From NCBI GenBank assembly GCA_902624455.1, contig CACNXQ010000001.1:160238-224237 (forward strand): a stretch of DNA of 64,000 nucleotides, read 5' to 3'. The position numbers and the translations under genes were made by a program. Origin of the DNA: an uncultured Pelagibacteraceae bacterium (GTDB taxonomy: Bacteria > Pseudomonadota > Alphaproteobacteria > Pelagibacterales > AG-422-B15). This document shows positions 45,807 through 62,925 of this stretch, one piece after another (position 1 is the stretch's first letter; every line of letters starts with the position of its first letter). The notes beneath the pieces are model-generated. The model ran no database searches, was not told the origin of the DNA, and was given only the letters and a program-made list of their open reading frames with translations.

Positions 45807-46964
45807 TTACCTCCTGATAGTTCTATAAATTGATATTAACAAAAATAAAAAAGTAAATGAAGTAATTGTATATATAAAGCCCATTGGGCCAAACATATCC
45901 ATAACTCTTCCACCAACAACTGGGCCAGCTAACGAACCGCATTCAAAAACCATAACAAGTATGGCCGTGGCTCCAGCAACTTGTGAAGCGCTATACCTTT
46001 CTCCCAACATTGTGAGGGATATTGCAAACAAACCGCTTGCAGCTCCGCCCCATATAAAACAACTTACTGCCATGACATAGAAATTGTCTAAGTAGAATGA
46101 AAAAATTATTGGACAAATAAAAGTTATAATAACTGCCGAGTTCATGAGGGTACGTTTATTAAATTTATCAAGCATCACTCCAATTATGGGCTGACATATT
46201 ACTCCACCAACTAGAGTGATTGTCACATATTGAAGGGCTATTTCTTGGGCAAATTGGTTTTTGATCATGAAAATTGGGAAAAAAGAAACAAACATTACAT
46301 CATCTAATCCACACAATATTGCTGCTCCAAATATTGTGGGAGCTGCAATGATTGTTGCTAAAACTGGTAAAGTTTTTTTATCTGGAAGTTTGGGATCATC
46401 AATTTCCATGGTGACTAACGGAATAATTGCTGCAAATGAAAGTGCTGAAATTACAACAAAAGGTAACCAACCTTCAATTCCGGTCATGTAGAGAACCATT
46501 GGCCCAAGTGCAAAACCAATTACAAATACAGTATTATATATGGTTACAATTTTTCCACGATTAGTGTCATCTGCCATTGATAACATCCATGTATCAAATG
46601 CATTCCAAGCTAACGCTCCAGCAAAACCAATTATAAACCTAATAATAAACCATGATGTTAAAGTATCAAAAATTGGAAAAGTGAAATAGAGAATTATTGT
46701 AAAAATTTGTGCAATGATTATAGATTTTGCTAAACCAATTTTATGAATAATTATAGGTGTTACTCTTACAAATAATATTACTGCGAGAGGTTGAGCAACA
46801 ACATTTAATCCTATTTCAGTATTACTATAACCTCGTGACTCTAAAATGAGTGAAAGAAGAGGTACAAGGGTTCCCAGCTTTATTCCTATAATTAAAGCGC
46901 ATAAGAATAATACAATATATGTTTTATAGTTATTACCTAAAAATGATTGAACGACACTTGTCAT
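45807..46964 (-). CDS. MFS transporter (YcaD-like)
   Basis: About 12 TM segments, RFIIG, RGK, GP..GG..MD motifs. Confidence 0.85.
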   Translation of the reverse strand: MTSVVQSFLGNNYKTYIVLFLCALIIGIKLGTLVPLLSLILESRGYSNTEIGLNVVAQPLAVILFVRVTPIIIHKIGLAKSIIIAQIFTIILYFTFPIFDTLTSWFIIRFIIGFAGALAWNAFDTWMLSMADDTNRGKIVTIYNTVFVIGFALGPMVLYMTGIEGWLPFVVISALSFAAIIPLVTMEIDDPKLPDKKTLPVLATIIAAPTIFGAAILCGLDDVMFVSFFPIFMIKNQFAQEIALQYVTITLVGGVICQPIIGVMLDKFNKRTLMNSAVIITFICPIIFSFYLDNFYVMAVSCFIWGGAASGLFAISLTMLGERYSASQVAGATAILVMVFECGSLAGPVVGGRVMDMFGPMGFIYTITSFTFLFLLISIYRTIRR

Positions 46965-47605
46965 GAAAATCTTTTTTCATCTACATAAATGCTTTTGAAA
47001 TATTTAAGTACTATGTTTCTACAGAATTGATTAGTATAAATTTTTGGATCAAATAATATTCTTTGCCATAAGCCATCAACCATAGAATGATAAGACTCAC
47101 TTATCTCTTTCGGTGTAAAATTTGTTTGTTTAGTTAGATGATTTAATTCTTTGATCAATTTTTCCATTTGATTTGAATATATTTCATCCTGGTGCTGACA
47201 AATGTTTAAATAAGATGGTCTGAATTTTACTTCACTGTAAAAAGCCATCCATACAGAGATTTTATTTCTGTTAGCAATTTTTTCACTAAAGTCGTTATCT
47301 AATATTCTTAATATGCGATCTATAGGATCTAAATTCTTTTCTTCAAAAATTGACTGCCATGAGCTCTTATATTCATCTGACAAATATTGAAGTGAACTTA
47401 ATAAGAGATTTTCTTTAGATTTAAATTTAAAATTAGCATATCCTTGTGATACCCCAGCCTTTTTTGCAACATGTGCAATTGTTGTATCAGCCAATCCTCT
47501 TGCGGCAATAGTTTCGATGGTTGCATCAATCAATTTCAAATGATTTGATGAGATTTGATCGTTTGCCTCAATAATTTCGTTGTTTTTTTCAGGGGCCGCT
47601 ATCAT
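46961..47605 (-). CDS. TetR-family regulator, BetI-like
   Basis: LIDATIETIAARGLADTTIAHVAKKAGVSQG HTH; C-terminal W.AFY.E...RP.Y and DGLW as in BetI-type regulators; start may be 47605 or 47623. Confidence 0.88.
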   Translation of the reverse strand: MIAAPEKNNEIIEANDQISSNHLKLIDATIETIAARGLADTTIAHVAKKAGVSQGYANFKFKSKENLLLSSLQYLSDEYKSSWQSIFEEKNLDPIDRILRILDNDFSEKIANRNKISVWMAFYSEVKFRPSYLNICQHQDEIYSNQMEKLIKELNHLTKQTNFTPKEISESYHSMVDGLWQRILFDPKIYTNQFCRNIVLKYFKSIYVDEKRFS

Positions 47606-47647
47606 CAAGAAAACAATATACAATCTTTAGCAACAAAGATAGTTTTG

Positions 47648-47705: not shown

Positions 47706-49334
47706 ATGGCCAAAAATTCACATGATGTAATTGTAATTGGTGCAGGGCACAATGGACTGACTGCTGCGAGTTATATGGCAAAGGCAGGTTTAGATGTTCT
47801 TGTTCTTGAAAAAAATGAATGGATCGGTGGAGCAGCTGTGAGTAGAGAGCTATTTCCAGGCTGGAAGTATTCTAATTGTTCATATGTTTGTAGTCTTTTA
47901 AGACCAGAGATTATGAGAGACCTAGAGTTGTACAAATATGGACTCCAAGTTATTCCATACGAGGGTAGTGCAACTATGATGCGAAATGGCGATTATTACG
48001 CTCATTATCATGATCATGATATGACAATCAAATCTATCAGACGACATTCACTTAAAGATGCGGAGGCTTATGAAAGATATAGCCGGGATGTACTTAGACA
48101 ATGTAAAATCATTAAACCATTACTAAAGATGACACCTCCAGATTTAACATCGTTTAAACCGAAAGATATTTTTGGGGCACTCGAGTTTGCAAAATATTTT
48201 GCCGCTAAAGATGAGCTCGGAGGATTAGGTGAGAAAGAAATTTACGATACGATACGTTTTTACACAATGAGTATTAGAGACTATTTAGATGAATATTTTG
48301 AAAGCGATATTACTAAAGCCCATTTAGCTGGAAGTGCAATAATTGGAACTGCACTAGGACCTTGCTCACCAGGATCAGCGTATGTTTTACTGCACCATTA
48401 TATGGGAGAAGTTGATGGATCTGTAGGTTCATGGGGTTATTCAAGAGGTGGCATGGGATCAATTACTAAAGCAATGACAGGTTGTCTTAAAGCTCATGGT
48501 GGTGATGTTAAGCCAAATAATCAAGTAGCAAATGTAATTGTCAAGAATGGTAAAGCAATTGGAGTTGCAACAACCAATGGTGATGAATATTATGCAAAGA
48601 AAATTGTTTCCAATTTAGATGTAAAAAGAACCTTCCTCACAATTACAGAGGAAAAATCTCTTCCATCAGATTTTGTTCAAAAAGTAAAAAATTTTAAAAT
48701 TAGAGGTTCCTCAGGCAAACTAAATATTGCACTAGATGGATTGCCTGATTTCCCATGTATACCTGAAGGAGATCCGGGTGGGGGTGGAGATATGCATTTC
48801 ACTGAAAGCATCGAGGAAATGGAAGGTGCTTATGATGATTGGAAGAGAGGGGAATGGTCAAAAAATCCATATGTTGATATGTGTATACCGTCAAAAAGTG
48901 ATCCTACTATGGCCTCTCCTGGTAAGCATTATATGTCAGTGTTTATTCAATACGTACCGTTCAATTTAGCAAATGGAGGTTGGAATGAAGAACGAAAGCA
49001 AGCATTTGGTAAACATATAATTGAATGTATTTCTGCATTTTCACCGAACTTTAAAGATCTGATAAATCACTATGAAGTAAGGACACCGCTAGACTTACAT
49101 AATGAAGTTGGGCTTACCGAAGGTAATATATTTCAAGGCGAATTGACCATGGACCAACTCATGTTTAATAGACCTGTAACCGGATATGCCCAGTACAGAA
49201 CGCCTCTAAAAAATATGTACATGTGCAGTTCTTCAACACACCCTGGAGGTGGAGTAATGGGAGCGCCTGGCGCAAATGCTGCACGAGAACTACTTTTAGA
49301 TATGAATATACCTCAAAAAGGCAACTATTATTAA
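47706..49334 (+). CDS. PYROXD2 / phytoene-dehydrogenase-like FAD oxidoreductase A
   Basis: VIGAGHNGL, GGAAVS.E..PG, SYVCSLLRPEI, AYVLLHHYMG, GGMG, GNIFQG, THPGGGVMGAPG; start MAKNSH at 47706. Confidence 0.85.
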   Translation: MAKNSHDVIVIGAGHNGLTAASYMAKAGLDVLVLEKNEWIGGAAVSRELFPGWKYSNCSYVCSLLRPEIMRDLELYKYGLQVIPYEGSATMMRNGDYYAHYHDHDMTIKSIRRHSLKDAEAYERYSRDVLRQCKIIKPLLKMTPPDLTSFKPKDIFGALEFAKYFAAKDELGGLGEKEIYDTIRFYTMSIRDYLDEYFESDITKAHLAGSAIIGTALGPCSPGSAYVLLHHYMGEVDGSVGSWGYSRGGMGSITKAMTGCLKAHGGDVKPNNQVANVIVKNGKAIGVATTNGDEYYAKKIVSNLDVKRTFLTITEEKSLPSDFVQKVKNFKIRGSSGKLNIALDGLPDFPCIPEGDPGGGGDMHFTESIEEMEGAYDDWKRGEWSKNPYVDMCIPSKSDPTMASPGKHYMSVFIQYVPFNLANGGWNEERKQAFGKHIIECISAFSPNFKDLINHYEVRTPLDLHNEVGLTEGNIFQGELTMDQLMFNRPVTGYAQYRTPLKNMYMCSSSTHPGGGVMGAPGANAARELLLDMNIPQKGNYY

Positions 49335-50851
49335 TGAGTCAGTCAGATTATGATGTCATTGTAATTGGCGGTGGCCATAACGGTCTTGTTTGCGCAAATA
49401 TTCTAGCAAAAAAAAATAAAAAAGTAATCATAGTCGAAGCAAGAAGCACCTGTGGAGGACTTTTAGATGATCAGATTATTAATTGTGTTCCAAACTTTAG
49501 TACTGAAGTTGTAAACGCATTAGGTGGTCTATCTGTTAAATATAAACCCAAGAGTACCATTGCATTATCCGAAACTGGCCAACACATAAGACTGACCGGA
49601 AACCAACATATTGATCACAGATCAATTGCAACTTTTTCTGAGTCAGATGCAGATAGGTACGTTGAATTTCATAATAAGATGTCATTATTTTCAAAAACAC
49701 TTGGATCATTCATGATGTCATCCCCACCACGTGTCATGAATCATAATTATTCTGACTATTTTAAACTTTTTAAACTCGGTATGAATGTGAGGTTTTTGGG
49801 AAAAAAGAATTTCAATGAATTTGCTAGAATGATCGGACTCAATATTGCAGATGAACTAGAGGATAATTTTGAAAACACATTACTTCAGGGGTTAATAGCT
49901 CATGACTCTATAATTGGTTCTAATCTAGGTCCTAGGTCCCCTGGAACAGTTATTAATTTAATGTATCGTATGGCAAATCATGACAATTCAATTTTTGGTG
50001 GTAATTACGAAATTGAAGGCGGATGCAATCAGCTAACTGATGCATTAGTTTCACTTGCTGAGAAAAATAAAATTAAAATTATTACTTCTGCTAAGGTTAG
50101 CAAGTGCATCATACAAGATGATAGAGCAATAGGCGTAGAGTTAGAAGATGGAAAACAGATTTACGGCAAATCTGTAGTATCTAATGCAGACCCTAAATCT
50201 ACATATTTTAATCTCTTAGGGTCTGAAAACTTAGATACTGATGTAAAGAGAAGAGTTAAACACTATCGTTCAAAAGGCCGCGTAGCAAAACTTATATTAG
50301 ATTTAAATAGTATACCCTCATTTAATAACTGTGATGAAAGCGACCTTGAAAGCCGAATGATAATTGCGCCGTCAATTGATTATATAGAGGAAAATTACAA
50401 TAGAAGTAAGTTTGATAAACTCTCTGACGAACCTATCATTGAATTATCACTTCAAGAAAATTCAGAAGGCATGAAACGACTAAATGTACAAGTTCAATAC
50501 GCATCATATAAAGTTCAGCATGGCTGGGATGAAGCTAAAGACCAATGTATAAATTCTGTCATTAAACTCATTAAGAAATACTCACCTGAGATTGAAAAAT
50601 CTATTGAGGGCAAAAAATTCATTTCACCTGATGATGTAGAAATAGATTATAATGTTTCTGGCGGCCACTGGCATCATGGAGAAATTCAAATCGACCAGCT
50701 ATTTATGTTAAGACCCATTCCTGGTGCATCCCAATATAAAACACATCTCGATGGACTTTATATGTGTGGTGCTGGTTCACATCCCGGAGGCGGACTGTCA
50801 GGCATTCCAGGAAAAAATGCAGCTCAGGAAATATTAAAAGGTACAAATTAA
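49334..50851 (+). CDS. PYROXD2 / phytoene-dehydrogenase-like FAD oxidoreductase B (divergent paralog)
   Basis: VIGGGHNGL, SNADP, GGHWHHGE, GAGSHPGGG; ATG overlaps the paralog A stop (TAATG). Confidence 0.85.
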   Translation: MSQSDYDVIVIGGGHNGLVCANILAKKNKKVIIVEARSTCGGLLDDQIINCVPNFSTEVVNALGGLSVKYKPKSTIALSETGQHIRLTGNQHIDHRSIATFSESDADRYVEFHNKMSLFSKTLGSFMMSSPPRVMNHNYSDYFKLFKLGMNVRFLGKKNFNEFARMIGLNIADELEDNFENTLLQGLIAHDSIIGSNLGPRSPGTVINLMYRMANHDNSIFGGNYEIEGGCNQLTDALVSLAEKNKIKIITSAKVSKCIIQDDRAIGVELEDGKQIYGKSVVSNADPKSTYFNLLGSENLDTDVKRRVKHYRSKGRVAKLILDLNSIPSFNNCDESDLESRMIIAPSIDYIEENYNRSKFDKLSDEPIIELSLQENSEGMKRLNVQVQYASYKVQHGWDEAKDQCINSVIKLIKKYSPEIEKSIEGKKFISPDDVEIDYNVSGGHWHHGEIQIDQLFMLRPIPGASQYKTHLDGLYMCGAGSHPGGGLSGIPGKNAAQEILKGTN

Positions 50852-52050
50852 TGTCAAAAGACAATCGGTTTATAGCACTTAAAAAGACCCCATTTCACTC
50901 ACGAACTAGTTTAGCTTCAAGAACAAACAAATGGTACAATTGGAATGGATACACCGTACCAACTGAATACTCAACAACCGAACTTGAATACACAGCAGCT
51001 CGTAATGGTACTTCAGTAATGGATCTTACTCCAATGTGTAAATACGAGATAAAGGGAAGCGATGCTCATAAATATATAGATTATCTTGTAACGCGCGACT
51101 TGTCTGAAATGAATGATAATACGGTTGCATATATCATTTGGTGCAATGAAGACGGAAAGGTAATAGATGATGGCACGATCTTTAAACATTCATCTGAACA
51201 CTTCATGCTTTGTTGTGCAGTTAAAATTCTAAATTGGCTTAACGACTCAGCTATTGGATTTGATGTAACTATAAAAGATGTTACTGACACCATCGCTGCA
51301 TTATCAATACAAGGACCTACTTCTTGTTCTACTTTAAAAAACTTTGGAGCAGACTCACTTGAAAATATGAAACCTTTCGAAATGAAAGAATATAATATAA
51401 ATGGATACAATGTCTTAATATCAAGAACAGGTTTTACTGGCGATCTTGGTTATGAACTTTGGACTGATCCTCAAAATGCTGAAACGATGTGGGACTCTGT
51501 AATGGAAGCAGGAAGTCTTCTAAAAATAAGACCATTTGGAATGAATGCTTTGGAGATGACTAGGATAGAAGCAGGATTTATTCAAACTAACACTGATTTT
51601 GTTGCCGCAGAGGATGCATTAAGACCTGTAAGAATGAGATCGCCCTATGAGATTGGAATGGGTTGGCTTGTTCATTTAAACAAAAAAAATTATTTTGTTG
51701 GAAAAAATGCATTAAAAAAAGAGAAGCAATCAGGAACTACTGAAAGATGTTTAGTTGGACTTGATATTGACGGCGATAAACCAGCACACGGTTCAGTTAT
51801 TTATAATGAAAAAAAAGAGGATATAGGTATTGTTACTGCAGCACTATGGTCACCAACACTGAAAAAAAATATTGCTCTAGCATCTCTCAAAAGACCTTAC
51901 GGCATTAAGATAAAAGACAATATTTTCGCTGAAATTTATCATCCTGAAGAAATTGAGTATCGAAAGATCTGGGCAAGATGTAAAATTGTTAAACGTCAGT
52001 TTTATTCACCAGAAAGAAGAAACAATGTGCCTGCTGACCTTTACGAGTAA
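50851..52050 (+). CDS. GcvT-like folate-binding aminomethyltransferase family protein
   Basis: TPFH, EY.A.R, DLTPM, GKVIDDG, IQGP, SRTGFTGDLGYE, RIEAG; start MSKDNR at 50851 overlaps upstream stop. Confidence 0.9.
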   Translation: MSKDNRFIALKKTPFHSRTSLASRTNKWYNWNGYTVPTEYSTTELEYTAARNGTSVMDLTPMCKYEIKGSDAHKYIDYLVTRDLSEMNDNTVAYIIWCNEDGKVIDDGTIFKHSSEHFMLCCAVKILNWLNDSAIGFDVTIKDVTDTIAALSIQGPTSCSTLKNFGADSLENMKPFEMKEYNINGYNVLISRTGFTGDLGYELWTDPQNAETMWDSVMEAGSLLKIRPFGMNALEMTRIEAGFIQTNTDFVAAEDALRPVRMRSPYEIGMGWLVHLNKKNYFVGKNALKKEKQSGTTERCLVGLDIDGDKPAHGSVIYNEKKEDIGIVTAALWSPTLKKNIALASLKRPYGIKIKDNIFAEIYHPEEIEYRKIWARCKIVKRQFYSPERRNNVPADLYE

Positions 52051-52115: not shown

Positions 52116-53519
52116 ATGCCAAAATCTCAAACCAGCAAGCCATTAGATAATCTCAAAAATAGTTTAGATGATAGAATTCTCTATCCCTGGCAGTATTTAG
52201 AATATCTAGGCGAAGATGACAGAACATTCATTGAAAAATCTGAAGGAATTTATCTATTTGATAAGACGGGTCGAAAACTTATTGATGGACCTGGAGGAAT
52301 GTGGAATGTAAATGTTGGCCATGGTGTAAAAGAAATTGCTGATGCTGTGTATGCTCAAATAAGAAGTATGCCATATGCCAGTCCTTTTACAGAATCAACA
52401 GAAATTGCTTACAATTATGCATCTCGTTTAGTTAAGTATGCGCCGGGTGATTTAAAAAGAGTTTTTTTTACTTCTGGAGGATCTGCAGCAGTAGACTCTG
52501 CCTTAAGATTTGTAATGTTCTATAACAATGTTAGAGGATTAAGAGACAAGAAACAGATTATATCAAGGCATGATGCCTACCACGGAAGCACATATCTTGG
52601 GGCATCATGCTCAGGAAAAGAGCGAGATAAAAATAATTTTGACTTTGCTAATGACATTGTTCACCATTTGTCATCACCGAATCCATTTCGTAAGCCAGAT
52701 GATATGAGCGATGAAGATTTTTGTGACTTAAAAGTCAAAGAACTTGAAGATAAAATTATTGAGTTAGGTCCAGAAAAAGTTGCTGCATTTATTGCTGAAC
52801 CAATACTCGCATCAGGTGGGGTAATTGTTCCACCTAAAGGTTATCAGAAAAAGACGTTAGAAGTCTGTAGAAAATATGATGTCATCTATATTTCAGATGA
52901 AATAGTTACAGGTTTTGGGAGATTGGGACATATATTTGCTTCAGAAAACTACTTCGATATCCAACCGGACATTATTCTTTTAGCTAAAGGAATTACCTCA
53001 GGTTACGTGCCATGTGGTGCCGTTGTAATTTCAGAGCGACTAATGTCACAATTAGATCATAAGGAAAAAGTTATCTTTTCAAATGGCTTCACTGACTCAG
53101 GTCACCCAGTTAGTATGGCAGCTGCTACAGCTACACTTGATTATATCGAAAAAACAAACTTACTTGATCATGTGAAAGAAGTAGGCCCTTATCTACAGAG
53201 TAGACTTCAAGAATTAACTGACTTACCAATTGTTGGCGAAGTACGTGGTGAAGGTTTAATGGCTGCTGTTGAATGTGTAATCAGTAAAGAAAAAAAGGAT
53301 CCGTTGAATCTTCAATATGAGATTGCTTCAAGAATTAATTCCCATTGTCAAAACTTAGGACTGATTGTTAGACCTCTCTTTAATACATGCGTGATGTCAC
53401 CGTCATTAATAATTACTAAGGATCAAATTGACGATTTAGTGAGTATTCTTAGAAAAGGTATCGAGCTAGCTACAAAAGATATAAAAGAAGAAGGTCTGTG
53501 GTCTGCTGAAGCGAATTAA
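52116..53519 (+). CDS. class III PLP aminotransferase (omega-amine/putrescine:pyruvate type)
   Basis: DGPGGMWNVNVGHG, SGGS, YHGST, AFIAEPI, DEIVTGFGRLG, AKGITSGY. Confidence 0.9.
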   Translation: MPKSQTSKPLDNLKNSLDDRILYPWQYLEYLGEDDRTFIEKSEGIYLFDKTGRKLIDGPGGMWNVNVGHGVKEIADAVYAQIRSMPYASPFTESTEIAYNYASRLVKYAPGDLKRVFFTSGGSAAVDSALRFVMFYNNVRGLRDKKQIISRHDAYHGSTYLGASCSGKERDKNNFDFANDIVHHLSSPNPFRKPDDMSDEDFCDLKVKELEDKIIELGPEKVAAFIAEPILASGGVIVPPKGYQKKTLEVCRKYDVIYISDEIVTGFGRLGHIFASENYFDIQPDIILLAKGITSGYVPCGAVVISERLMSQLDHKEKVIFSNGFTDSGHPVSMAAATATLDYIEKTNLLDHVKEVGPYLQSRLQELTDLPIVGEVRGEGLMAAVECVISKEKKDPLNLQYEIASRINSHCQNLGLIVRPLFNTCVMSPSLIITKDQIDDLVSILRKGIELATKDIKEEGLWSAEAN

Positions 53520-54764
53520 ATGATTGAATTCCAACAGCTTTTAGAAAATTACCAAGAAGGTAAAGCACTTCCACAACAATTTTACACAAACGAAAAAATT
53601 TTTTCAGAAGAGATGAAAAGAATTTATTTCAAACAATGGTTAATGGTTGATCATGTATCAAGAATACCTAACCCTGGTGATTACTTTGTTTTTGAAGCTG
53701 AAAAAGAGTCCATAATTATCATTAGAGGAAGAGATGAAAAAATACGTGCATTTTATAATGTATGTACTCATCGTGGATCAAGGATATGTCTTGAAGAAGA
53801 AGGCACAAAAAAATTACTTGTATGCCCTTATCATGCATGGAGCTTTTCAGCTGAAGGAGATCTAAAGGCAGCAAGATATATGCCTGAGGATTTCAAAAAA
53901 GAGGAATGGGGTCTAAAAAAATGTCACCTAAAGATACACGAGGGATTGATATTTATTAATCTCTCTCTTGAGGAACCAATGGACTTCGACGAATTCATTG
54001 GTCCACTAAAGGAAATGCTTGAATTTCACCAAACAAGTAAAGCTCGAATTGCAACTAGAAAAAAATATCCAACGGAAGCAAATTTCAAACTAGTTCTTGA
54101 AAACTTTCAAGAGTGTTATCATTGTGGCCCTGCTCATCCTGAGCTTTGTTCAATTCATGAAAAAGACTGGGTTTATACAATGGGAGCTGGCGTAAATACA
54201 GCACCTGAAAAAGATACAAAAGAATACTTGGACAAAATACAGCCTTGGATTGAGGAATGTAAGAGTAAGGGCGTACCATCTGATACATACCTTGAATCTG
54301 AAGATGGTCTAAGAAAAGGTTTAAATCGTTATGTTGACAGAACTCCGATTGGAAATGGTCACTTGTCACAAACTAAAGATGGTAAACCGGCATCATCATT
54401 AATGGGTAAATTTAGTGAATTTGACGGGGGTCTCACACAAGTAAGTTTTAATCCTTTTGGATGTTGTTATTTAACAAATGATTTTGTCGTAATGTTTATT
54501 TTTAAACCAGTATCAATTGATTATTCAGAAGTTGAACTGGTTTGGCTAGTTGGTGATCAAGCTGAAGAAGGTAAGGACTATCAATCTGACGATGTTAGTT
54601 ACATGTGGGATGTAACAACACAAGCAGACACAACTATAATTGAAAATAACCAAAAAGGTGTTTATTCACGAGCATTTGCTCCTGGAATATTATCTGAAAA
54701 CGAGTCTGCAGTTACATATTTTTATGATTGGTATTTTACCAACATGAAAATGGGATCAAACTAA
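53520..54764 (+). CDS. Rieske non-heme iron oxygenase alpha subunit (GbcA/Stc2-like quaternary-amine demethylase group)
   Basis: NVCTHRG...CPYHAW Rieske ligands, ENFQECYHC..AH, WDVTTQAD..IIENNQKG. Confidence 0.9.
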   Translation: MIEFQQLLENYQEGKALPQQFYTNEKIFSEEMKRIYFKQWLMVDHVSRIPNPGDYFVFEAEKESIIIIRGRDEKIRAFYNVCTHRGSRICLEEEGTKKLLVCPYHAWSFSAEGDLKAARYMPEDFKKEEWGLKKCHLKIHEGLIFINLSLEEPMDFDEFIGPLKEMLEFHQTSKARIATRKKYPTEANFKLVLENFQECYHCGPAHPELCSIHEKDWVYTMGAGVNTAPEKDTKEYLDKIQPWIEECKSKGVPSDTYLESEDGLRKGLNRYVDRTPIGNGHLSQTKDGKPASSLMGKFSEFDGGLTQVSFNPFGCCYLTNDFVVMFIFKPVSIDYSEVELVWLVGDQAEEGKDYQSDDVSYMWDVTTQADTTIIENNQKGVYSRAFAPGILSENESAVTYFYDWYFTNMKMGSN

Positions 54765-54842: not shown

Positions 54843-56198
54843 ATGAAACAACTTTACGACAAAGCTATCTATGATTTTGACAATCCTGTATCAAGCTATT
54901 GGGAAGAAATAAGTCATCCAGATCAAAACTCATATCCAAAATTAAAAGGAGATCAACAATGTGATATTGCTGTCATAGGCGGTGGTTTCACTGGCTTATC
55001 AACTGCATATCATTTAGCAAAACTCTACCAAAGAGATGTAAGATTACTAGAAGCTGGTCATGTTGGTTGGGCTTCCTCAGGTCGTAATGCAGGGTTTGTT
55101 TGTTTACCCGCAACAAAGCTTTCAATTCAAACTCTATTTAAAAGATATGGAATTGATGAAACTAAAAAGTTCTTTGCATCACAAGTTGAGGGCATGGATA
55201 TATTAGATTCAATTATTAAAGATCATAGCATTGAATGTGAGCAAATTGGAGATGGGAATTTAGATGTTGCTCATAGTCCCCATAGTTGTGATGGCTTGAA
55301 AGAATGGGGAAATGATTTAAAAAAATATTTTGGCATTAATACTCGTTGGATTCCAAAAGAAGAGTTTGATGAGTCAGGTCATCAATCTACAGAACAATTT
55401 GGAGCCGTTTTTATGGAGTCAGGTTTTGCTATGAACCCTCTTGCATTTCTTGGAGGATTTGCGAAGGCAACTGTAGAGGCAGGAGCGGTATTACATGGAC
55501 ATTCAAGGGTTAAAAAATGGGAAAGAAATGGCAAACATAGATTAATAACTGATGAAGGTTCATTGACAGCAAACCAAGTTGTGGTTGCAACAAATGGTTA
55601 CACTGATGAGTCGCTACACCAGAGTTTTGCTAACCGTATGGTGCCTGTTTTATCAAACATAATTGTTACAAGGGAGATGAGCGAAGATGAATTTAATCTT
55701 CAAAATTATAAAACTTTAAACCCTATTTGTAATAGTAGGGAAATACTCTATTACTATAGAAGAATGCCATCAAATAGAATGCTCTTTGGAACTAGAGGAG
55801 ATACTTACGGTGATGATCAAAGTGCAAATAAAATGAAGGATTATATGACTCAGAAATTTAGAGGTGTATTTCCTTCTTGGAATGATGTTGAAATTTCACA
55901 TTATTGGCGCGGTACGGTTGTTATGAATAGAGATCTAACTCCAGCATTTGGAAGTTTAGATGATGATCAAACTGTCCACTTCTCATATGGCTATTCAGCA
56001 AATGGAAACAATACAACAATTTATTGTGGTAAAAAGCTTGCTGAAATGATTTGTGAGTCAAACAGTGGTTCAACAAATATATCAGAGATATATAGAGGTT
56101 TATCACCTAAAATACCTTTTCCATTTCTCAGACTTTGGTACCTGAGGTTGTACCTTTGGTATTCAAAACTTCGGGATAAAAATAAAAAAGAATTATAA
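54843..56198 (+). CDS. FAD-dependent amine oxidoreductase (PuuB/DadA-like)
   Basis: SYW, IGGGFTGLS, GWASSGRNAG, VVATNGY, YYYR, GYS.NG. Confidence 0.85.
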   Translation: MKQLYDKAIYDFDNPVSSYWEEISHPDQNSYPKLKGDQQCDIAVIGGGFTGLSTAYHLAKLYQRDVRLLEAGHVGWASSGRNAGFVCLPATKLSIQTLFKRYGIDETKKFFASQVEGMDILDSIIKDHSIECEQIGDGNLDVAHSPHSCDGLKEWGNDLKKYFGINTRWIPKEEFDESGHQSTEQFGAVFMESGFAMNPLAFLGGFAKATVEAGAVLHGHSRVKKWERNGKHRLITDEGSLTANQVVVATNGYTDESLHQSFANRMVPVLSNIIVTREMSEDEFNLQNYKTLNPICNSREILYYYRRMPSNRMLFGTRGDTYGDDQSANKMKDYMTQKFRGVFPSWNDVEISHYWRGTVVMNRDLTPAFGSLDDDQTVHFSYGYSANGNNTTIYCGKKLAEMICESNSGSTNISEIYRGLSPKIPFPFLRLWYLRLYLWYSKLRDKNKKEL

Positions 56199-56235: not shown

Positions 56236-57129
56236 ATGATTAATTGGTGGAATAGTCTTTATTCAAGAAGTGATAATGCAAAAGCTTACGTATTATTATC
56301 CCCTGCTCTAATTCTTGTAATACTTGGTATGGCCGTCCCATTATTGGCGGTATTTTCTGTAAGCTTTACTACTCAAGCATCATTTGAGATTGACTATACC
56401 CCAACTTTTGATCGCTATATTGAGTTCATGGATACGAGTTCTAGAACAGGAAACGTATTAACAACTTTGCTGGGTCGCTCTATATCTATTTCCTTTTTAG
56501 TTGCCTTTTTTACACTTATCACAACCTACCCTGTTGCATACTATGTCGCATTTTATGTGAAGAAGAACAAAATGCTGTGGTTAGTATTAATGACTTTACC
56601 TTTTTGGACTTCATATTTACTCAGAGTGTTTGCATGGAAATTAATTCTAGGCCACAAAGGAGTCATAAATGCAAGCTTAATGACTGTAGGGTTCATTGAT
56701 GAGCCTCTTGGATTTCTTATGTACAGTCAAACAGCAGTTGTCATTACTCTTGCGCATGCCTGGGCAGCTTTTGCATTGCTGCCTCTCTATGTAAGTTTAG
56801 AAAAAATTGATTATTCTCTCATAGAAGCATCGCACGATCTTGGATGCACAAAATTTGAAACATTCTGGAGAGTTGTGTGGCCATTAAGTTTACCGGGTGT
56901 AATAGGAGCTGTTCTGATTATTTTTATTCCCACTGTTGGTGATTATGTAACGCCAGCTTTAGTTGGAGGCACTGAAGGTAGGATGTTATCTAATATGATA
57001 CAAACTTATTTTGGTCGGGCTAATAATTTTCCATTAGGTGCGGCTTCAGCTGTAATCATGTTGATTAGTGTCGCATTGGTTACAATTGCTGTAAATGTAG
57101 TAACAAAAAGACTAACGCAGAGGTTATAG
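56236..57129 (+). CDS. polyamine-type ABC transporter permease (PotB/PotH-like)
   Basis: YPVAY, PFWTSYLLR, EAS.DLG (EAA loop), P.SLPG, P.LVGG. Confidence 0.9.
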   Translation: MINWWNSLYSRSDNAKAYVLLSPALILVILGMAVPLLAVFSVSFTTQASFEIDYTPTFDRYIEFMDTSSRTGNVLTTLLGRSISISFLVAFFTLITTYPVAYYVAFYVKKNKMLWLVLMTLPFWTSYLLRVFAWKLILGHKGVINASLMTVGFIDEPLGFLMYSQTAVVITLAHAWAAFALLPLYVSLEKIDYSLIEASHDLGCTKFETFWRVVWPLSLPGVIGAVLIIFIPTVGDYVTPALVGGTEGRMLSNMIQTYFGRANNFPLGAASAVIMLISVALVTIAVNVVTKRLTQRL

Positions 57130-57132
57130 AAA

Positions 57133-57945
57133 ATGAAACTTAACGAAAATAGAACATTATATATTTACGTTCTTATTTATTTTGGTTTTCTTTATATACC
57201 AGTAATGTTCCTTCCTATATTTTCTTTCAATCAAGGAATTCATATGGCATTTCCATTGCAGGGATTTTCAACTGAGCATTACGAGGATATGTGGAATTCA
57301 CCGAAATTGTTTGATGCATTATGGAATAGTATTTATGTAGGAGTTGTCTCAAGTTTAATGGCAACAATGCTCGCTTTTTTTGCAGCAAAAGCGTTTACAA
57401 AGTATAAGTTTCGCGGCCAAGCTTTGTCATATGGTGCTATTCTTACGCCCTTCTTAATTCCTGAAATTATTCTTGCAATTGCTCTATTGGTTATATGGGT
57501 ATCTGTTGGACTACCTCTAGGACTTACACCCATAATTATTGGTCATGTTCTTTTTTGTACTCCTTTTTGCATGATTATACTTATCGCAAGAATGGAGGGG
57601 TTTGATAATAATCTTGAGGAAGCATCGAGAGATCTGGGAGAAGGAGTATTCATGACGTTTTGGAGGGTTTCATTCCCAATTTTACTTCCAGGTTTAATTG
57701 CTGCTTTTCTTCTTGGCTTTATAATTTCATTTGACGAATTTTTATTAGCAATGTTCCTTCAGGGCTCAGACCAAACATTGCCTATATATATGTGGGGACA
57801 ATTGAGATTTGCTAGAAGGTTGCCACATGTATTGGCGCTTGGTGCAGTAATTATAGTTGCCACTAGCCTTGTTGTAATGTTAGCTTATTGGCTCAGGAAC
57901 GTAGGACAACCTCAGGAGAAGCAAGATTTAACATTTAAAATATAA
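57133..57945 (+). CDS. polyamine-type ABC transporter permease (PotC/PotI-like)
   Basis: FLYIP, FSFN, EEASRDLG, SFDEF, TLP. Confidence 0.9.
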   Translation: MKLNENRTLYIYVLIYFGFLYIPVMFLPIFSFNQGIHMAFPLQGFSTEHYEDMWNSPKLFDALWNSIYVGVVSSLMATMLAFFAAKAFTKYKFRGQALSYGAILTPFLIPEIILAIALLVIWVSVGLPLGLTPIIIGHVLFCTPFCMIILIARMEGFDNNLEEASRDLGEGVFMTFWRVSFPILLPGLIAAFLLGFIISFDEFLLAMFLQGSDQTLPIYMWGQLRFARRLPHVLALGAVIIVATSLVVMLAYWLRNVGQPQEKQDLTFKI

Positions 57946-59030
57946 TGAGCGAAAATTTTATAGATATCAGAAATATTTCTAGACATTTTGGAACAGTTAA
58001 AGCTGTTGATGATGTTTCCTTTTCTATTAAACAGGGTGAGTTTTTTAGTCTTTTGGGACCGAGTGGATGCGGTAAAACGACATTGCTCCGTTTACTAGCA
58101 GGATTTGAATCTGCAAATCAAGGTGAAATTTTTATTGATGGTGTTGACGTTACCACAATGCCTCCAAACTTGAGACCAACTAATATGGTTTTTCAAAATT
58201 ATGCAATTTTTCCACATATAAATGTAAAAAAGAACATCGAATTTGGAATGAGAAAGGAAAAACTCTCAAAGCAAGAACTTGAAAATAGAGTTCAAGAGGT
58301 TTTATCGTTGGTTAAACTAGAAGGTTACGAAGAAAGATTTTCTAATCAGCTTTCTGGAGGTCAAAGACAAAGAATTGCATTAGCAAGAGCGCTTATTAAA
58401 AGACCAAAAGTTTTACTACTAGATGAACCTTTGGGCGCACTCGATAAAAAATTAAGAGATGAAATGCAGATTGAATTAAGAAATCTTCAAAAAGCCGTAG
58501 GTATTACATTTGTTTTCGTTACACACGATCAAAGTGAGTCAATCAGTATGTCAGATAGAGTTGCAGTTATGAATGAAGGTCAAATTCAACAAATATCAGA
58601 TCCACATGATCTATATTATAATCCACAAAATATATTTGTAAGTGATTTCATAGGAACAACTAATTTTTTATCTTCATCTACAGGAAGCAGTAATGGAGAA
58701 AATATTATGGTTAAAATTGATCAAATTGGCGAATTTAGTATCAAGAATAAACTGAATATACCTGAAAATGATAACGAAACAGTAGTTTCTATAAGACCTG
58801 AAGCTATTGTCTTATCTCCATCTCCGATTGACAAAGGAGATATTGTAATGGAGGGAACAATTGAAAATTCCTCTTATTATGGAGAATTAACAAGTTTTTA
58901 CGTAAGAGTTCAGGGTGCTGAAAATCCACTTATTGCGTCCTCACAACGGTTTGATAATAATTCATTTGAAGGAAACAAGTGTTACTTATCTATTAATTTT
59001 GAGGATATAAACCTGCTAAAAAAAGAATAG
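57945..59030 (+). CDS. polyamine-type ABC transporter ATPase (PotA/PotG-like)
   Basis: GPSGCGKTT, VFQNYA, LSGGQ, LLLDEPLGALD, VTHDQ, TOBE-like C-terminus. Confidence 0.93.
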   Translation: MSENFIDIRNISRHFGTVKAVDDVSFSIKQGEFFSLLGPSGCGKTTLLRLLAGFESANQGEIFIDGVDVTTMPPNLRPTNMVFQNYAIFPHINVKKNIEFGMRKEKLSKQELENRVQEVLSLVKLEGYEERFSNQLSGGQRQRIALARALIKRPKVLLLDEPLGALDKKLRDEMQIELRNLQKAVGITFVFVTHDQSESISMSDRVAVMNEGQIQQISDPHDLYYNPQNIFVSDFIGTTNFLSSSTGSSNGENIMVKIDQIGEFSIKNKLNIPENDNETVVSIRPEAIVLSPSPIDKGDIVMEGTIENSSYYGELTSFYVRVQGAENPLIASSQRFDNNSFEGNKCYLSINFEDINLLKKE

Positions 59031-59052
59031 CCTGCCAATAAATGACAGGCTA
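59016..59052 (-). terminator. intrinsic terminator of the substrate-binding protein gene
   Basis: Minus strand TAGCCTGTCA-TTTAT-TGGCAGGCTA hairpin followed by TTCTTTTTTT. Confidence 0.7.
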
Positions 59053-59076
59053 CTCAAAAAAGTTAATTAATTTTTT

Positions 59077-60192
59077 TTAAACAACTCCTGCAGACCATTC
59101 AGCCCATCGAGCTTCAATATAGTCTGTTACTTCAGGTTTTGCTTCATTACTGAAGTTACCATTCTGTAAGTGAGTCATTGGATCTAATGCAAGTCCACGT
59201 TCAATCTTATCCGCTTCTGAAATTGCATCGTATCCAACTTTATTTACATGGCCGTATCCATATTCTAAAAGCATAAATGCAGAACATTCTGGAGATTGCG
59301 CAGCATTAATTACTTCGTATGCAACATCTAAATTTGCTCCTTTAGGAATACAGAAACCACACATCCAAGTTAAGCTACCTTCTTTTGGAGAGATCATTGG
59401 GAAACCAGTGTTCCATGAACTTTCATTCCATACGACTGCAGCATGAACTTCTTCAGACATCATTGCTTCTTCAAGAGAAGTTGGGTCTGGACTAAGAAGT
59501 CTTATGTTTGGTCTTAATTTTTCCATAGGACCATCAAATAAACGATCAACGTCCTCAATGGTTAAATCTTCCATTTTTGTAACATCGATCCCCATTCCAA
59601 TCATGATCAAGTATAAAGAGTCTGCAGCACTATCAAGCATTGCAACTTTACCCTCTAGTCTTTTATCAAACAACATCATGATTGTTTCTTTACCTGGATC
59701 AGTATTTATCCAAGGTTGTGCATCTTTGTTTACTATTATTGAAGTATCTCCAAATTCACATGGTGCAAACCAGTGCTGGTCTTTAAAGTATGTTGTAGGC
59801 ATTTTCTTAGAGTCTTCGAATAAATTATTCCAGTGAACACATCTTGATGTATCAATTGGCTGTATAATATCAGCTCTATGCCATCTAAATGGATCTGCAT
59901 TACATGGGTGTGCAGTATCACACTGGAATCCAGCCCTTATTTTTTGAAGCATTGACTCTGAATCATCAGCTACAGTAAACTCTAATCTATCAGGATCCAT
60001 TCCTGGATACATGTCAGGTATATCGTATCCTGACCAAGTTAATACTCTTGCGTTATCTGCAGCAAAAGCACTGTTTGCGCCGAATTGAGTAGTTGCTACT
60101 AGACCTGCAGCTCCCATCGCCTTCATAAGCTGACGTCTATTAAGCTTCCTGCCCATAATTTGTTTAGCTATATTGCTTTTTGGTTTAGACAT
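59077..60192 (-). CDS. PotD/PotF-like periplasmic binding protein with Tat signal
   Basis: NRRQLMK Tat motif, LTWSGY, IQPIDTS, PKEG..W..G; GAAGGGGAG SD. Confidence 0.87.
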   Translation of the reverse strand: MSKPKSNIAKQIMGRKLNRRQLMKAMGAAGLVATTQFGANSAFAADNARVLTWSGYDIPDMYPGMDPDRLEFTVADDSESMLQKIRAGFQCDTAHPCNADPFRWHRADIIQPIDTSRCVHWNNLFEDSKKMPTTYFKDQHWFAPCEFGDTSIIVNKDAQPWINTDPGKETIMMLFDKRLEGKVAMLDSAADSLYLIMIGMGIDVTKMEDLTIEDVDRLFDGPMEKLRPNIRLLSPDPTSLEEAMMSEEVHAAVVWNESSWNTGFPMISPKEGSLTWMCGFCIPKGANLDVAYEVINAAQSPECSAFMLLEYGYGHVNKVGYDAISEADKIERGLALDPMTHLQNGNFSNEAKPEVTDYIEARWAEWSAGVV

Positions 60193-60269: not shown

Positions 60270-61766
60270 TCAGCCAATTAAAGGCCATTTTTCCTTACTA
60301 TTTAACCATGGATCGAGTTTTTCAAAATTATAACCACCTTGAAAGACTTTTTCGTCACAAAAAGCTTTGGAAACTATTTGAATTCCTGTTGGAACACCTA
60401 AGTTTGAAAAGCCAGAGGGTACAGCTAAAACTGGAAGTCTGCCTAGAATATTGAAGGGATAGCTCATACACCAAGATACATCGGGTCCTTCCTGTACCTT
60501 ATTATTAATAATTACTTTATCTTTTTTTAGATCCATATCTGCTTTTACAGACGGCAAACAATTCGTAGGACAAACTAATATATCATATTCCTCAAGAATC
60601 GGCGAAATCTCCAAATACATTTCACCTGCAACATTCGCACAGTCACGCGATGTATACCCCAAGTAGGCACCCAGTTCATCAGAGTAGATTTTTTTATCTT
60701 CAGCAATCGCCTTAAAATGTAAATCTGATAATTTTGCATACATTTGTGCATATTCAGTCATTTCTTGCCTTTCATCTTCTGGTACTTCAGCGAGAGTTCT
60801 AAAAAATGCTCCGCCGGCATAATGACTGTAACAAGTAGAGTCAACCTCCTCTTTTTTCCAATTGAGTTTTATTTCATTAACACTAGCTCCCAAAGTTTTA
60901 AATTTTTCGACTGCTTCAAGTGTATTTTTCTCAACTGTTTCATCAACTTCGAAAAAACCCAAATCAAGTGAGTATGCTATTTTCCAACCCTTTATATTTT
61001 CATAATCAAGGGAAAGTGTTTTTTTTGGACTTATTGTTGTTATATCATTTGGGTGTGGTCCACACATTACATTCTGCATTAGCGCACAGTCAGACACAGT
61101 TCTAGCCATTGGTCCAACTACGCAGTAATGATCAAGATTAAATGGATGAGCAATTGGATTCCTCCCATACGGTGGTTTGTAGCCAACAATACCACATGCA
61201 GATGCAGGTATTCTTATTGATCCACCGATATCACTTCCAGTTGCAATTGTAGTCATTCCAGCTGCTAAAGATGCTCCACTACCACCAGAAGATCCTCCCG
61301 GTGAAAAATTTAAATTCCATGGATTCTTGCTAACACCGTTTAATATTGAATGAGTAAATGACGTTAAGGAAAATTCAGGACATGTAGATCTTGCATGGAT
61401 AATAGCGCCAGAGTTAACTATTCTTTCAACATCAATATCGGTATGTCTTGATAAATTATTTTTAAACATCTGTGATCCCATTGTGTTTATCTGTCCATCT
61501 ATCGAAACTTCGTCTTTAATTGCTGTCGGCAAACCATCAAGAGGCAACGTTAATGCATCACTAAAATATTTATCTTCAGACTTTTTTGCTTCTTTTAATG
61601 CTTTTTCAAAATATAATTGATTGAACGCATTAATCTCGGAATTGATGCTTTCAATTCTTTTTATTATTTCCTGTAATAATTCAACGGGGGAGATTGATTT
61701 ATTCTTGAACTTTTTTATTGCCTCATTAGCTGAAAGGTAACAAATCTCTAAGTCTGCAGTATTCAT
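60270..61766 (-). CDS. amidase signature family enzyme
   Basis: AIKD (Lys), PGGSSGGS, GSDIGGSIRIPAS (Ser-cisSer-Lys triad). Confidence 0.92.
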   Translation of the reverse strand: MNTADLEICYLSANEAIKKFKNKSISPVELLQEIIKRIESINSEINAFNQLYFEKALKEAKKSEDKYFSDALTLPLDGLPTAIKDEVSIDGQINTMGSQMFKNNLSRHTDIDVERIVNSGAIIHARSTCPEFSLTSFTHSILNGVSKNPWNLNFSPGGSSGGSGASLAAGMTTIATGSDIGGSIRIPASACGIVGYKPPYGRNPIAHPFNLDHYCVVGPMARTVSDCALMQNVMCGPHPNDITTISPKKTLSLDYENIKGWKIAYSLDLGFFEVDETVEKNTLEAVEKFKTLGASVNEIKLNWKKEEVDSTCYSHYAGGAFFRTLAEVPEDERQEMTEYAQMYAKLSDLHFKAIAEDKKIYSDELGAYLGYTSRDCANVAGEMYLEISPILEEYDILVCPTNCLPSVKADMDLKKDKVIINNKVQEGPDVSWCMSYPFNILGRLPVLAVPSGFSNLGVPTGIQIVSKAFCDEKVFQGGYNFEKLDPWLNSKEKWPLIG

Positions 61767-61830: not shown

Positions 61831-62925
61831 ATGAATATTAATAGTCAATTAAAAAATATTATAACTTCACAGAAAGTCGATGAAGGTTTCCATCAGTTAT
61901 TTTTTACTGATGAAAATCTATTTAAATTAAGTTTTGAAGCTATTTTTAAGAAACAATGGGTATTTATTACTCATTATTCTCATTTTTATGACAATGATGA
62001 ATTCATTTATAATTTAACTGATGGTTATGTTATTGTAAAAAAAATTGGTGATAAGTTAGAAGCGTCTCATTCAAATAATACAACAACTTGTCACACTAAA
62101 ATTTTTGAACATTTAGTTTTTATAAACTTATCAGAAAACCCGTATGATTTTGAAGAGTTTATTAAGCCTCTAGAGCCATATATAAAAATGCACGGTTTAA
62201 AAAAAGGCAAAATTGCCTTTCAAAAAGACTACGTATTCAATGCATCTCATCTTGCCACAATCCAGAATTTCAAAGAATGTAATCATTGCTGGGGAGGAGA
62301 ATTTTCTCATAAAGATTATTTAGATGTTCATGGATCAACTTATTGTAATTCTTACGGGGCTGGTGTTGGATCCGGTATTGAGTCTGAAGAATTTAATGAA
62401 CGATTAGAAAAGTGGACACAGGATACAAGAAATAAAGGTTTGTTTGTTGATGAATTTTCTGAGAATGATCCAAAGTTTTTTCGTGTTGCTGAAAGAACAC
62501 CACTAAAAGAAGGAATACTTTCTGAAACAAGGGACGGATCATATAGTTGCACGTCTCTGATGGGAGATTTCAAAAAGTTCGGAGCTGACGGGGGCTATAC
62601 TGCTGTTGGGTTTTCGCCATTTAATAGTTTTGTGGCGAATAATGAGTTCTCTATTTTGTTTGTATTTTCACCAATATCCAAAAATAAAACAATCGTTACG
62701 CAAATGTGGGTAACAGATGTTGAAGCTGAATGTGATATCGATAAAATGATATTTCTTTGGGACAGGACAACCTTGGAAGATTCTCAATTATGTGAGATGA
62801 ATCAAAAAGGAATTGAAAGTATCGCATATTCAGAAGGTGTATATGGAAGTCTTGAAAAATCTTTAATACTGTACCAAAAATTTTATTTGGACCATTTACA
62901 AGATCACATAAGAAGCCGGGCTTAA
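61831..62925 (+). CDS. ring-hydroxylating oxygenase alpha-subunit homolog lacking the Rieske cluster segment
   Basis: Aligns with 53520-54764 (FKKQW, CH.KI.E.L.FINLS, NF.EC.HC, GAGV, RTP, SLMG.F, DGG, WD.TT..D, NQKG) but has no CxH...CxxH. Confidence 0.8.
   Translation: MNINSQLKNIITSQKVDEGFHQLFFTDENLFKLSFEAIFKKQWVFITHYSHFYDNDEFIYNLTDGYVIVKKIGDKLEASHSNNTTTCHTKIFEHLVFINLSENPYDFEEFIKPLEPYIKMHGLKKGKIAFQKDYVFNASHLATIQNFKECNHCWGGEFSHKDYLDVHGSTYCNSYGAGVGSGIESEEFNERLEKWTQDTRNKGLFVDEFSENDPKFFRVAERTPLKEGILSETRDGSYSCTSLMGDFKKFGADGGYTAVGFSPFNSFVANNEFSILFVFSPISKNKTIVTQMWVTDVEAECDIDKMIFLWDRTTLEDSQLCEMNQKGIESIAYSEGVYGSLEKSLILYQKFYLDHLQDHIRSRA

Follow-up and report, generated by a model that had tools for sequence, protein, structure and literature searches.

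A PYROXD2-type flavoprotein pair and a GcvT-fold protein as a probable split folate-linked N-demethylase in an uncultured Pelagibacteraceae bacterium

Three overlapping genes lie at positions 47706 to 52050 of a 64,000-nucleotide stretch (the window) of contig CACNXQ010000001.1, from the assembly GCA_902624455.1 of an uncultured Pelagibacteraceae bacterium; the window sits in a 1.32-Mb genome (G000) that is 99% complete. The genes encode a PYROXD2-type flavoprotein (A), a divergent paralog of it (B) and a stand-alone GcvT-fold protein (C). We consider it probable that A, B and C constitute a split tetrahydrofolate (THF)-linked oxidative N-demethylase for a methylated amine, which would be imported by the adjacent polyamine-type ATP-binding cassette (ABC) transporter. 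This reading is based on the tight coupling of the three genes, a linkage kept through gene rearrangement, the conservation of A, the fold of the flavoproteins, the intact C protein and the amine-handling genomic context.

The three proteins and their families

47706-49334, plus strand: gene A, 542 amino acids (aa), flavin adenine dinucleotide (FAD) flavoprotein of the PYROXD2 type, presumed catalytic subunit
49334-50851, plus strand: gene B, 505 aa, divergent paralog of A with both FAD-binding ends and a GGHWHH motif of its own
50851-52050, plus strand: gene C, 399 aa, stand-alone GcvT-fold folate-binding protein

Both junctions read TAATG. The stop codon of A (TAA, 49332-49334) shares its last A with the start codon of B (ATG, 49334-49336), and that of B (TAA, 50849-50851) with the start codon of C (ATG, 50851-50853), so that the stop/start overlaps at 49334 and 50851, described in an earlier reading of this DNA (hereafter the original prediction), are both present and one base long. 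The longest open frame of gene A begins at 47667; in the alignment, the N-termini of its homologs match the ATG at 47706 (MAKNSHDVIVIGAG) instead.

An exhaustive profile-free search for relatives found 2019 cluster representatives with E values of 1e-30 or lower. Protein A aligns over residues 4-533 with the oyster (P0275) and mayfly (P0154) proteins that carry the name PYROXD2 from NCBI/UniRef, at 39-40% identity and E values of about 1e-110 to 1e-107. The original prediction had recognized two PYROXD2 motifs in A, and both were found, SYVCSLLRP at residues 59-67 and YVLLHHYMG at residues 226-234; the comparison with human PYROXD2 was made by way of the animal proteins. Together with GNIF(H/Q)G, these motifs (as SYVxSLLRP and YVLLHHxMG) are common to A and to all three aligned eukaryotic rows, the third of which is an unnamed choanoflagellate protein. 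We placed A in a tree of 82 rows, comprising 79 PYROXD2-like proteins and three CrtI proteins of the sister family as outgroup (quick IQ-TREE search, LG+G4, branch support by the Shimodaira-Hasegawa-like approximate likelihood ratio test, SH-aLRT). The bacterial A-type clade (38 rows) received 99% support, and its nearest neighbour is the group that contains eukaryotic PYROXD2; their join reached 94%, which is under the 95% mark from which branches were starred. By sequence, then, A belongs to the PYROXD2 family and the kinship is real, while strict orthology to eukaryotic PYROXD2 is not settled by the tree.

The AlphaFold model of A has a predicted local distance difference test (pLDDT) score of 88.3, and its best Foldseek match is 4rep (template modelling, TM, scores 0.78/0.85), with CrtI (4dgk) ranking second. 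The model of B (pLDDT 83.6, with a low-confidence GGHWHH loop) also matches 4rep best (TM 0.77). Both models have the CrtI/amine-oxidase fold, and after the carotenoid desaturase 4rep they match flavoenzymes that oxidize C-N bonds, namely MAO, NicA2 and putrescine oxidase, at TM of about 0.55-0.7. In Pfam, A and B show only generic flavoprotein matches (Amino_oxidase, and the first 40 residues of many Rossmann families). Their match to the DAO family (PF01266) likewise spans the first 40 residues only, and does not amount to a DAO domain. Hence, the modelled fold agrees with the proposal of the original prediction that A and B differ in fold from the flavoprotein part of the dimethylglycine and sarcosine dehydrogenases.

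The best NCBIfam names for A and B are CrtO, CrtD and CrtI. All of these matches are far below their cut-offs: against the CrtO model NF045689 (cut-off 1000) A scores 283.7 bits and B 187 bits, and against the CrtI family TIGR02734 (cut-off 238.1) A scores 89.8 bits and B 84.6 bits. In the tree, the 79 PYROXD2-like rows split from the three CrtI rows at 100% SH-aLRT, with the reservation that the CrtI outgroup forms a long branch, that the search was quick and the model simple, and that the starred branches should be read with a degree of caution. At E 1e-10 or better, neither phytoene synthase (PF00494) nor TIGR02734 found any match in the 99%-complete genome, while each search was positive in 8 of 14 control genomes; in the sister family, CrtI scored above the cut-off in 5/5 genomes. 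Judged from these scores and this tree, A and B are not carotenoid enzymes, and the comparison with carotenoid enzymes that the original prediction had called for turned out in its favour. The relatives are indeed named "phytoene dehydrogenase-like" or "NAD(P)/FAD-dependent oxidoreductase", labels that hide the family as had been suspected; A and B attract carotenoid names because they share the CrtI fold and the FAD-binding ends. As a side observation, if the lack of CrtI-family and phytoene synthase genes in this genome holds, the bacterium's family may make no carotenoid-derived retinal itself.

Protein B is 28% identical to A over 537 columns (E 3e-67). It keeps both FAD-binding ends (the GxGxxG motif as VIGGGHNGL at residues 10-18, and HPGGG at 483-487) and lacks all three A-type motifs, with INLMYRMAN at residues 207-215 where A has YVLLHHYMG. 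Opposite the A segment SYVCSLLRPEIMRDLEL, which holds SYVCSLLRP, the alignment of B has a gap of 16 columns. This gap is confined to B proteins of the Pelagibacterales type (window B and P0333), and most of the other 13 aligned B homologs have the segment. The original prediction was therefore right about the retained FAD-binding ends and the replacement of YVLLHH by INLMYR; the shortened N-terminal segment that it ascribed to B proved to be peculiar to the Pelagibacterales type, and mere loss of motifs is too simple a description. The proteobacterial B proteins form a clade of 18 rows, window B included, with 98% support, and within them GGHWHH is invariant (GGHWHHGE at residues 443-450 of window B). 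The motif occurs in 26 of 59 second paralogs and in none of 62 A-type proteins, where "A-type" denotes presence of the LLHHxMG motif, so that finding LLHHxMG in 62/62 A-type proteins is true by construction. When 56 matched sequence pairs (55 loci and the window) were compared, identity among A-type proteins exceeded that among second paralogs in 1539 of 1540 comparisons (medians 54% versus 40%). B thus evolves faster than A, and the invariant GGHWHH motif argues for a specialized partner rather than a decayed copy. Compared with genomes of its own genus, window A is 91-93% identical and window B about 67-71%, which is an unusually steep difference in rate for overlapping genes.

Protein C carries both GcvT domains at full length (PF01571, 201.1 bits, positions 8-254 of 255; PF08669, 44.5 bits, positions 1-79 of 80) and falls below the cut-offs of the T-protein models TIGR00528 (180.2 bits, cut-off 235.85) and NF001567 (243.3 bits, cut-off 300). 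Judging from these matches, C is a complete GcvT-fold protein and not a housekeeping T-protein. Its best NCBIfam match is the C-terminal half of the trimethylamine N-oxide (TMAO) demethylase Tdm (275.8 bits, profile positions 376-721 of 763, cut-off 1100). C aligns end to end with the T-protein 1woo and with Tdm (9q5a; E 1e-48), including the xIDD and SRTGxTGxxGxE stretches; further matches are to the folate domains of dimethylglycine dehydrogenase (5l46, E 8e-28) and dimethylglycine oxidase (1pj5, E 9e-24), as well as sarcosine oxidase alpha (2gag, E 4e-22; TIGR01372, 155 bits). Weaker matches, all far below the curated cut-offs, are those to dimethylsulfoniopropionate (DMSP) demethylase (145.9 bits) and to the vanillate and syringate O-demethylases.

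The genome as a whole contains eight GcvT-family matches, C and seven others, and four of them lie in long frames of 805-1013 aa, the size of fused dehydrogenases. Eight such loci in 1.32 Mb represent a heavy investment in one-carbon metabolism and methyl oxidation; since four fused-size frames lie elsewhere in the genome, the trio would be an addition to such enzymes and not their replacement.

Conservation of the trio across bacteria

We scanned one genome per species with a query alignment of 15 B-type proteins, kept 67 distinct loci from 640 relatives, and scored each locus by comparing all six-frame open reading frames with the proteins of the window operon. We counted a trio where a second paralog directly neighbours an A-type gene on the same strand and a GcvT gene lies no more than 1.5 kb away; 50 of the 67 loci have such a trio. 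Four gene orders occur (T standing for the GcvT gene): A-B-T in 22 loci, the divergent T|A-B in 18, B-A-T in five and T-A-B in five. By record titles, the 50 trio loci belong to eight phyla (Pseudomonadota, Acidobacteriota, Actinomycetota, Chloroflexota, Gemmatimonadota, Zixiibacteriota, Dormiibacterota and Bacteroidota). Of the 17 loci in which no trio was scored, 10 are contigs cut beside the genes, two hold a single flavoprotein with a GcvT gene and one holds a split pair; the others are taken up below with the proposed reaction. These data show that B-type genes travel with A-type and GcvT genes, and the joint conservation on which the original prediction had staked its case is borne out. 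In the order to which the window's bacterium belongs, a sample of genomes with a completeness of 80% or more yielded the flavoprotein pair in 24 of 26 members of its own family and in none of the 124 from the sister family.

Several apparent fusions among the relatives were discarded. Five long relatives (P0099 and P0439-P0442) leave the reading frame in an arginine-rich stretch within the final third of their A part, which we take as a sign of frameshift or gene-calling merges of adjacent A and B genes, and the 920-aa open frame of B in some relatives, which looked like a B-GcvT fusion, consists of two same-frame genes split by a stop codon. One protein (P0438, 1037 aa), found on a single 4.3-kb contig, has a clean junction between an A-type part and a second paralog, in which HPGGGVMG runs straight into IIIIGAGHNGL. 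A predicted complex of A and C scored 0.00 in both runs, which were made without controls, and this result counts neither for nor against binding. A further PYROXD2-like protein, P0151 (816 aa, on a 13.7-kb Logan contig), joins a glutathione-dependent formaldehyde-activating (GFA) domain (PF04828, residues 56-169) to a PYROXD2-like domain (residues 263-809); this single metagenomic sequence hints that the family may produce formaldehyde.

Operon context and expression

46961..47623, minus strand: BetI-type TetR-family regulator, divergent from the operon (PF00440, PF13977)
52116..53519, plus strand: class-III omega-aminotransferase (PF00202; NF005447, 650.6 bits, above the cut-off of 618)
53520..54764, plus strand: Rieske oxygenase alpha subunit of the quaternary-amine demethylase group (PF00355, PF00848; GbcA model 302.5 bits, cut-off 670)
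54843..56198, plus strand: DAO-family FAD oxidoreductase (PF01266, 187 bits)
56236..59030, plus strand: PotB/PotC/PotA-like ABC importer, two permeases and an ATPase (PF00528 twice, PF00005, TOBE_2)
59025..59055: hairpin of 13 pairs with a T-run, between the convergent ATPase and binding-protein genes, likely operon end
59077..60192, minus strand: distant PotD/PotF-type periplasmic binding protein (weak PotD/PotF matches)
60270-61766, minus strand: amidase (PRK06169, 306 bits, below the cut-off)
61831-62925, plus strand: Rieske-oxygenase homolog, matching GbcA model positions 151-418 of 420, that is, the catalytic half with no Rieske-cluster part
62941-63999, plus strand: glutamine-synthetase-like gene, weak match to gamma-glutamylputrescine synthetase

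The same-strand genes downstream of the trio are spaced by 0-78 bases. The solved relatives of the transaminase include putrescine and polyamine:pyruvate transaminases, and the nearest ones of the Rieske protein are 3n0q, 3vca, 4qup ("Monoxygenase; demethylase") and carnitine monooxygenase (6y8j). The DAO-family protein has weak, sub-cut-off matches to aminophosphonate oxidoreductase, pipecolate oxidase and SoxB models, and no solved relative was found for it at E 1e-15 or better. The importer ATPase scores above the cut-off of the potA subfamily TIGR01187 (364.7 bits, cut-off 355.6), while the solved relatives of the binding protein are spermidine/putrescine-binding proteins at E 1e-11 to 6e-15. 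The regulator remains below both BetI models (105 and 101 bits, cut-offs 201 and 118), and a TetR/BetI-type gene adjoins the trio in many proteobacterial loci. Family annotation of the operon proteins revealed no SoxD- or SoxG-like small subunits, and neither gcvH nor gcvP was found among 21 annotated neighbour genes. The amidase and glutamine-synthetase-like genes beside the operon suggest a further role of the island in the handling of amides or gamma-glutamylated amines. The hairpin at 59025..59055 is only suggestive as a terminator because such sites occur in the region at chance level (7 versus 7.1 expected by shuffling), and a promoter scan was uninformative in this AT-rich DNA (58 sites versus 57.6 expected).

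In two metatranscriptome runs of one study, contigs cover 27 and 28 of the 30 bins into which the operon was divided, and RNA-library contigs bridge the A/B junction (49149-50365), the B/C junction (50786-51770 and 50543-51354) and the transaminase/Rieske junction. Two other runs (X6 and X8) covered 8 and 17 of the 30 bins, with small shares that were mostly 90-95% alike and probably derive from conserved parts of relatives; they were not used.

The surroundings of the trio vary between lineages. Sixteen of the 50 trio loci contain a Rieske gene. In the rhizobial loci none lies within 10 kb; these loci share the transaminase type of the window and also carry a Pot-like transporter and a TetR gene. 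The Kiloniella locus adds a ferredoxin-reductase-type gene, an aldehyde dehydrogenase, an ADP-forming coenzyme A (CoA) ligase and an acyl-CoA dehydrogenase, and the neighbours in the Haliea locus include an enoyl-CoA hydratase; these differing neighbours suggest several downstream routes. The Haliea locus also holds a formyl-THF deformylase-type gene (L018:15072-15944, minus strand; Formyl_trans_N and ACT domains) at 2.3 kb from the trio, between two class-III aminotransferase genes and with Rieske and glutamine-synthetase-like genes nearby. A different class-III aminotransferase directly precedes gene A at L009:6696-8009 and in the gammaproteobacterial loci L007, L008, L010, L014 and L032; its closest matches are GntE, from guanitoxin biosynthesis (445.7 bits, cut-off 525), and glutamate-1-semialdehyde aminomutase. 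The window operon instead has a PRK07036-type transaminase after C.

Proposed reaction, rival explanations and the link to PYROXD2

We infer that A, B and C act as one enzyme complex that removes N-methyl groups and passes the carbon to THF. The roles assigned to A and B, the sequence of steps and the kind of substrate are to be understood at the same strength. In the proposed reaction, A would act on a tertiary or secondary amine and oxidize the C-N bond of an N-methyl group, giving an iminium, and C would capture the one-carbon unit on THF as 5,10-methylene-THF instead of letting formaldehyde be released. B would be a partner not equivalent to A, with a scaffolding, electron-transfer or second-site role. 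Where a quaternary nitrogen is present, the Stc2/GbcA-like Rieske oxygenase could take off the first methyl group; the trio and the DAO-family oxidase could then remove the remaining ones, the latter taking a further N-methyl or amine step, before the omega-transaminase would act on the freed primary amino group. Candidate substrates considered were methylated polyamines and betaines of omega-amino acids, between which the evidence does not discriminate. Besides the evidence named at the outset, the GFA fusion in P0151, the deformylase-type gene at the Haliea locus, the human genetics of PYROXD2, the RNA-library contigs that bridge the gene junctions and the evidence against carotenoid enzymes support the N-demethylase reading.

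To our knowledge, human PYROXD2 is an orphan protein with no assigned reaction. Its name stands for "pyridine nucleotide-disulfide oxidoreductase", and the animal protein is a mitochondrial flavoprotein. N-epsilon-dimethyl-lysine and N2-acetyl,N6,N6-dimethyllysine are both tertiary amines. PYROXD2 variants are reported to associate with the former (P 5e-181 to 4e-214; 10.1101/2023.09.26.559021), with the latter (PMC13352909) and with trimethylamine (PMC8777681), and biallelic variants to lead to a severe mitochondrial disorder of infancy (PMC8777681). The genetic link to methylated amines on which the original prediction had drawn is thus found in these papers, for dimethyl-lysine-type metabolites in two and for trimethylamine in the third. 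A literature search, whose coverage left out subscription journals, found neither an account of the trio nor any reaction assigned to PYROXD2.

The trio resembles several known systems in part. Dimethylglycine dehydrogenase/oxidase and sarcosine dehydrogenase also combine a flavin amine-oxidizing unit with a GcvT-fold unit, and by analogy the outcome may be the same, with the N-methyl group leaving as methylene-THF; however, these enzymes are single chains with a DAO-family domain, whereas the trio has two paralogs of the CrtI/amine-oxidase fold and a separate folate gene. Heterotetrameric sarcosine oxidase (SoxBDAG) and N-methylglutamate dehydrogenase share the multi-subunit design. In this sarcosine oxidase, the beta subunit is the catalytic flavoprotein, while alpha consists of a GcvT-like half fused to a dinucleotide-binding half without catalytic function; B and C could be equivalent to a split version of this alpha subunit, although, unlike the subunits of SoxBDAG, A and B are mutual paralogs from another flavoprotein family. 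C resembles the C-terminal GcvT-like half of Tdm, which catches the one-carbon unit, but lacks the N-terminal catalytic half, and its partner here would be the flavoprotein pair. CrtI, CrtD and CrtO share the overall fold (4rep, TM 0.77-0.85; 4dgk) and the FAD-binding ends with A and B, which form a separate clade and stand in an amine-catabolic setting, in a genome where no carotenoid pathway was found. Animal PYROXD2 is closest to A in its full-length identity (39-40%), three shared motifs and neighbouring clade; it differs in having an N-terminal extension, and neither a B-type nor a GcvT partner was seen for it here. Seen in this way, the trio would be a folate-linked flavoprotein demethylase built on the PYROXD2/CrtI-type fold and split into three proteins.

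A number of observations weigh against this reading. Two Chloroflexota loci with full flanks (L047 and L059) have the pair and no GcvT gene within 10 kb; in L040 the distance to the GcvT gene is 6.6 kb, and L072 consists of a lone gene. The proportion of 50 in 67 loci is no measure of the linkage between PYROXD2-like and GcvT genes in general, because the loci were chosen by their likeness to B. No fusion of A or B to GcvT was found among six long relatives (a weak search with B as query), no B-type partner accompanies eukaryotic PYROXD2 among the proteins seen in this analysis, and the operon contains no gene for an electron acceptor such as electron-transfer flavoprotein (ETF). The tree was made with a quick search, a simple model and a long outgroup branch. 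The RNA-library contigs are no proof of a single transcript, as such libraries may hold DNA. C could also act alone, because the stand-alone DMSP and vanillate O-demethylases move methyl groups without a flavoprotein.

The last point leads to the most serious alternative, which we nevertheless consider rather unlikely: A and B could be an amine oxidase or dehydrogenase that cuts a C-N bond other than that of an N-methyl group, and C an independent DmdA/LigM-like methyltransferase, the separate enzymes sharing one substrate. For example, a cleavage like that of polyamine oxidase would yield an amino-aldehyde, and C would move a methyl group directly to THF. Putrescine oxidase, MAO and NicA2 among the fold relatives of A and B, the polyamine-type transporter and transaminase, and the two full-flank loci with a pair and no GcvT gene would all suit such an arrangement, as would the matches of C to DMSP demethylase (145.9 bits) and to the vanillate and syringate O-demethylases, which work alone. 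Those matches, however, are far below the curated cut-offs, and C is nearer to the T-protein and the folate domain of Tdm, which capture the one-carbon unit from a partner domain. Moreover, the genes stay linked in eight phyla and four gene orders and often overlap at their start and stop codons, a closer association than pathway neighbours usually show.

Two further explanations appear much weaker. A CrtI/CrtISO/RetSat-like reaction, in which A and B desaturate, isomerize or saturate a C-C bond of a non-carotenoid compound while the GcvT neighbour serves an unrelated one-carbon step, would fit the best structural match of both models, the carotenoid desaturase 4rep (TM 0.77-0.85, with 4dgk second for A), and the NCBIfam names CrtO, CrtD and CrtI; we find it improbable, given scores far below the cut-offs of these models, a PYROXD2-like clade that stands apart from CrtI at 100% support, the lack of CrtI-family and phytoene synthase genes in a 99%-complete genome and an operon made of amine-handling genes, and it would leave the conserved linkage to a folate protein without a place. 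Hardly credible is the idea that C is a spare glycine-cleavage T-protein and that A/B stands in for the dihydrolipoamide dehydrogenase (L-protein) of a variant system. It could appeal to the 243 bits of C against a GcvT subfamily model, to its end-to-end alignment with 1woo, to the wording of the PYROXD2 name and to weak matches of the N-termini of A and B to dihydrolipoyl dehydrogenases; yet C is below both T-protein cut-offs (243.3 versus 300 and 180.2 versus 235.85 bits), the lipoamide dehydrogenase matches span only the first 40-60 residues with the dinucleotide-binding motif, the operon has no H- or P-protein gene, and seven other GcvT-family loci exist in the genome.

Going beyond the window, we tentatively put forward a joint reading that is possible though far from assured. 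An ancient and widespread heteromeric enzyme class, composed of a PYROXD2-type heterodimer and a free folate protein, might demethylate methylamino and dimethylamino groups and pass the carbon to THF; what remains of it in mitochondria might be the catalytic subunit, PYROXD2, with N-epsilon-methylated lysine derivatives as substrates; and the SAR11-type trio, working after the Rieske oxygenase, might strip all methyl groups from a quaternary, polyamine-like or omega-amino compound, an ocean metabolite from which these streamlined cells would gain both one-carbon energy and nitrogen.

If the N-demethylase reading is true, a second flavoprotein fold also gave rise to folate-linked demethylases, as split enzymes, and one SAR11-type family has an extra demethylation route; the occurrence of the pair in this family and not in the sampled genomes of the sister family would point to a methylated nitrogen compound that it harvests. 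Automatic names hide the PYROXD2-type trio along with these implications. The metabolite associations of PYROXD2 are among the strongest in the genome (N-epsilon-dimethyl-lysine, P down to about 1e-214), and the bacterial trio, with soluble proteins and relatives in cultured organisms such as Kiloniella laminariae DSM 19542 (L009) and Mesorhizobium (L012 and L066), offers a testable reaction for it, the oxidative N-demethylation of tertiary amines.

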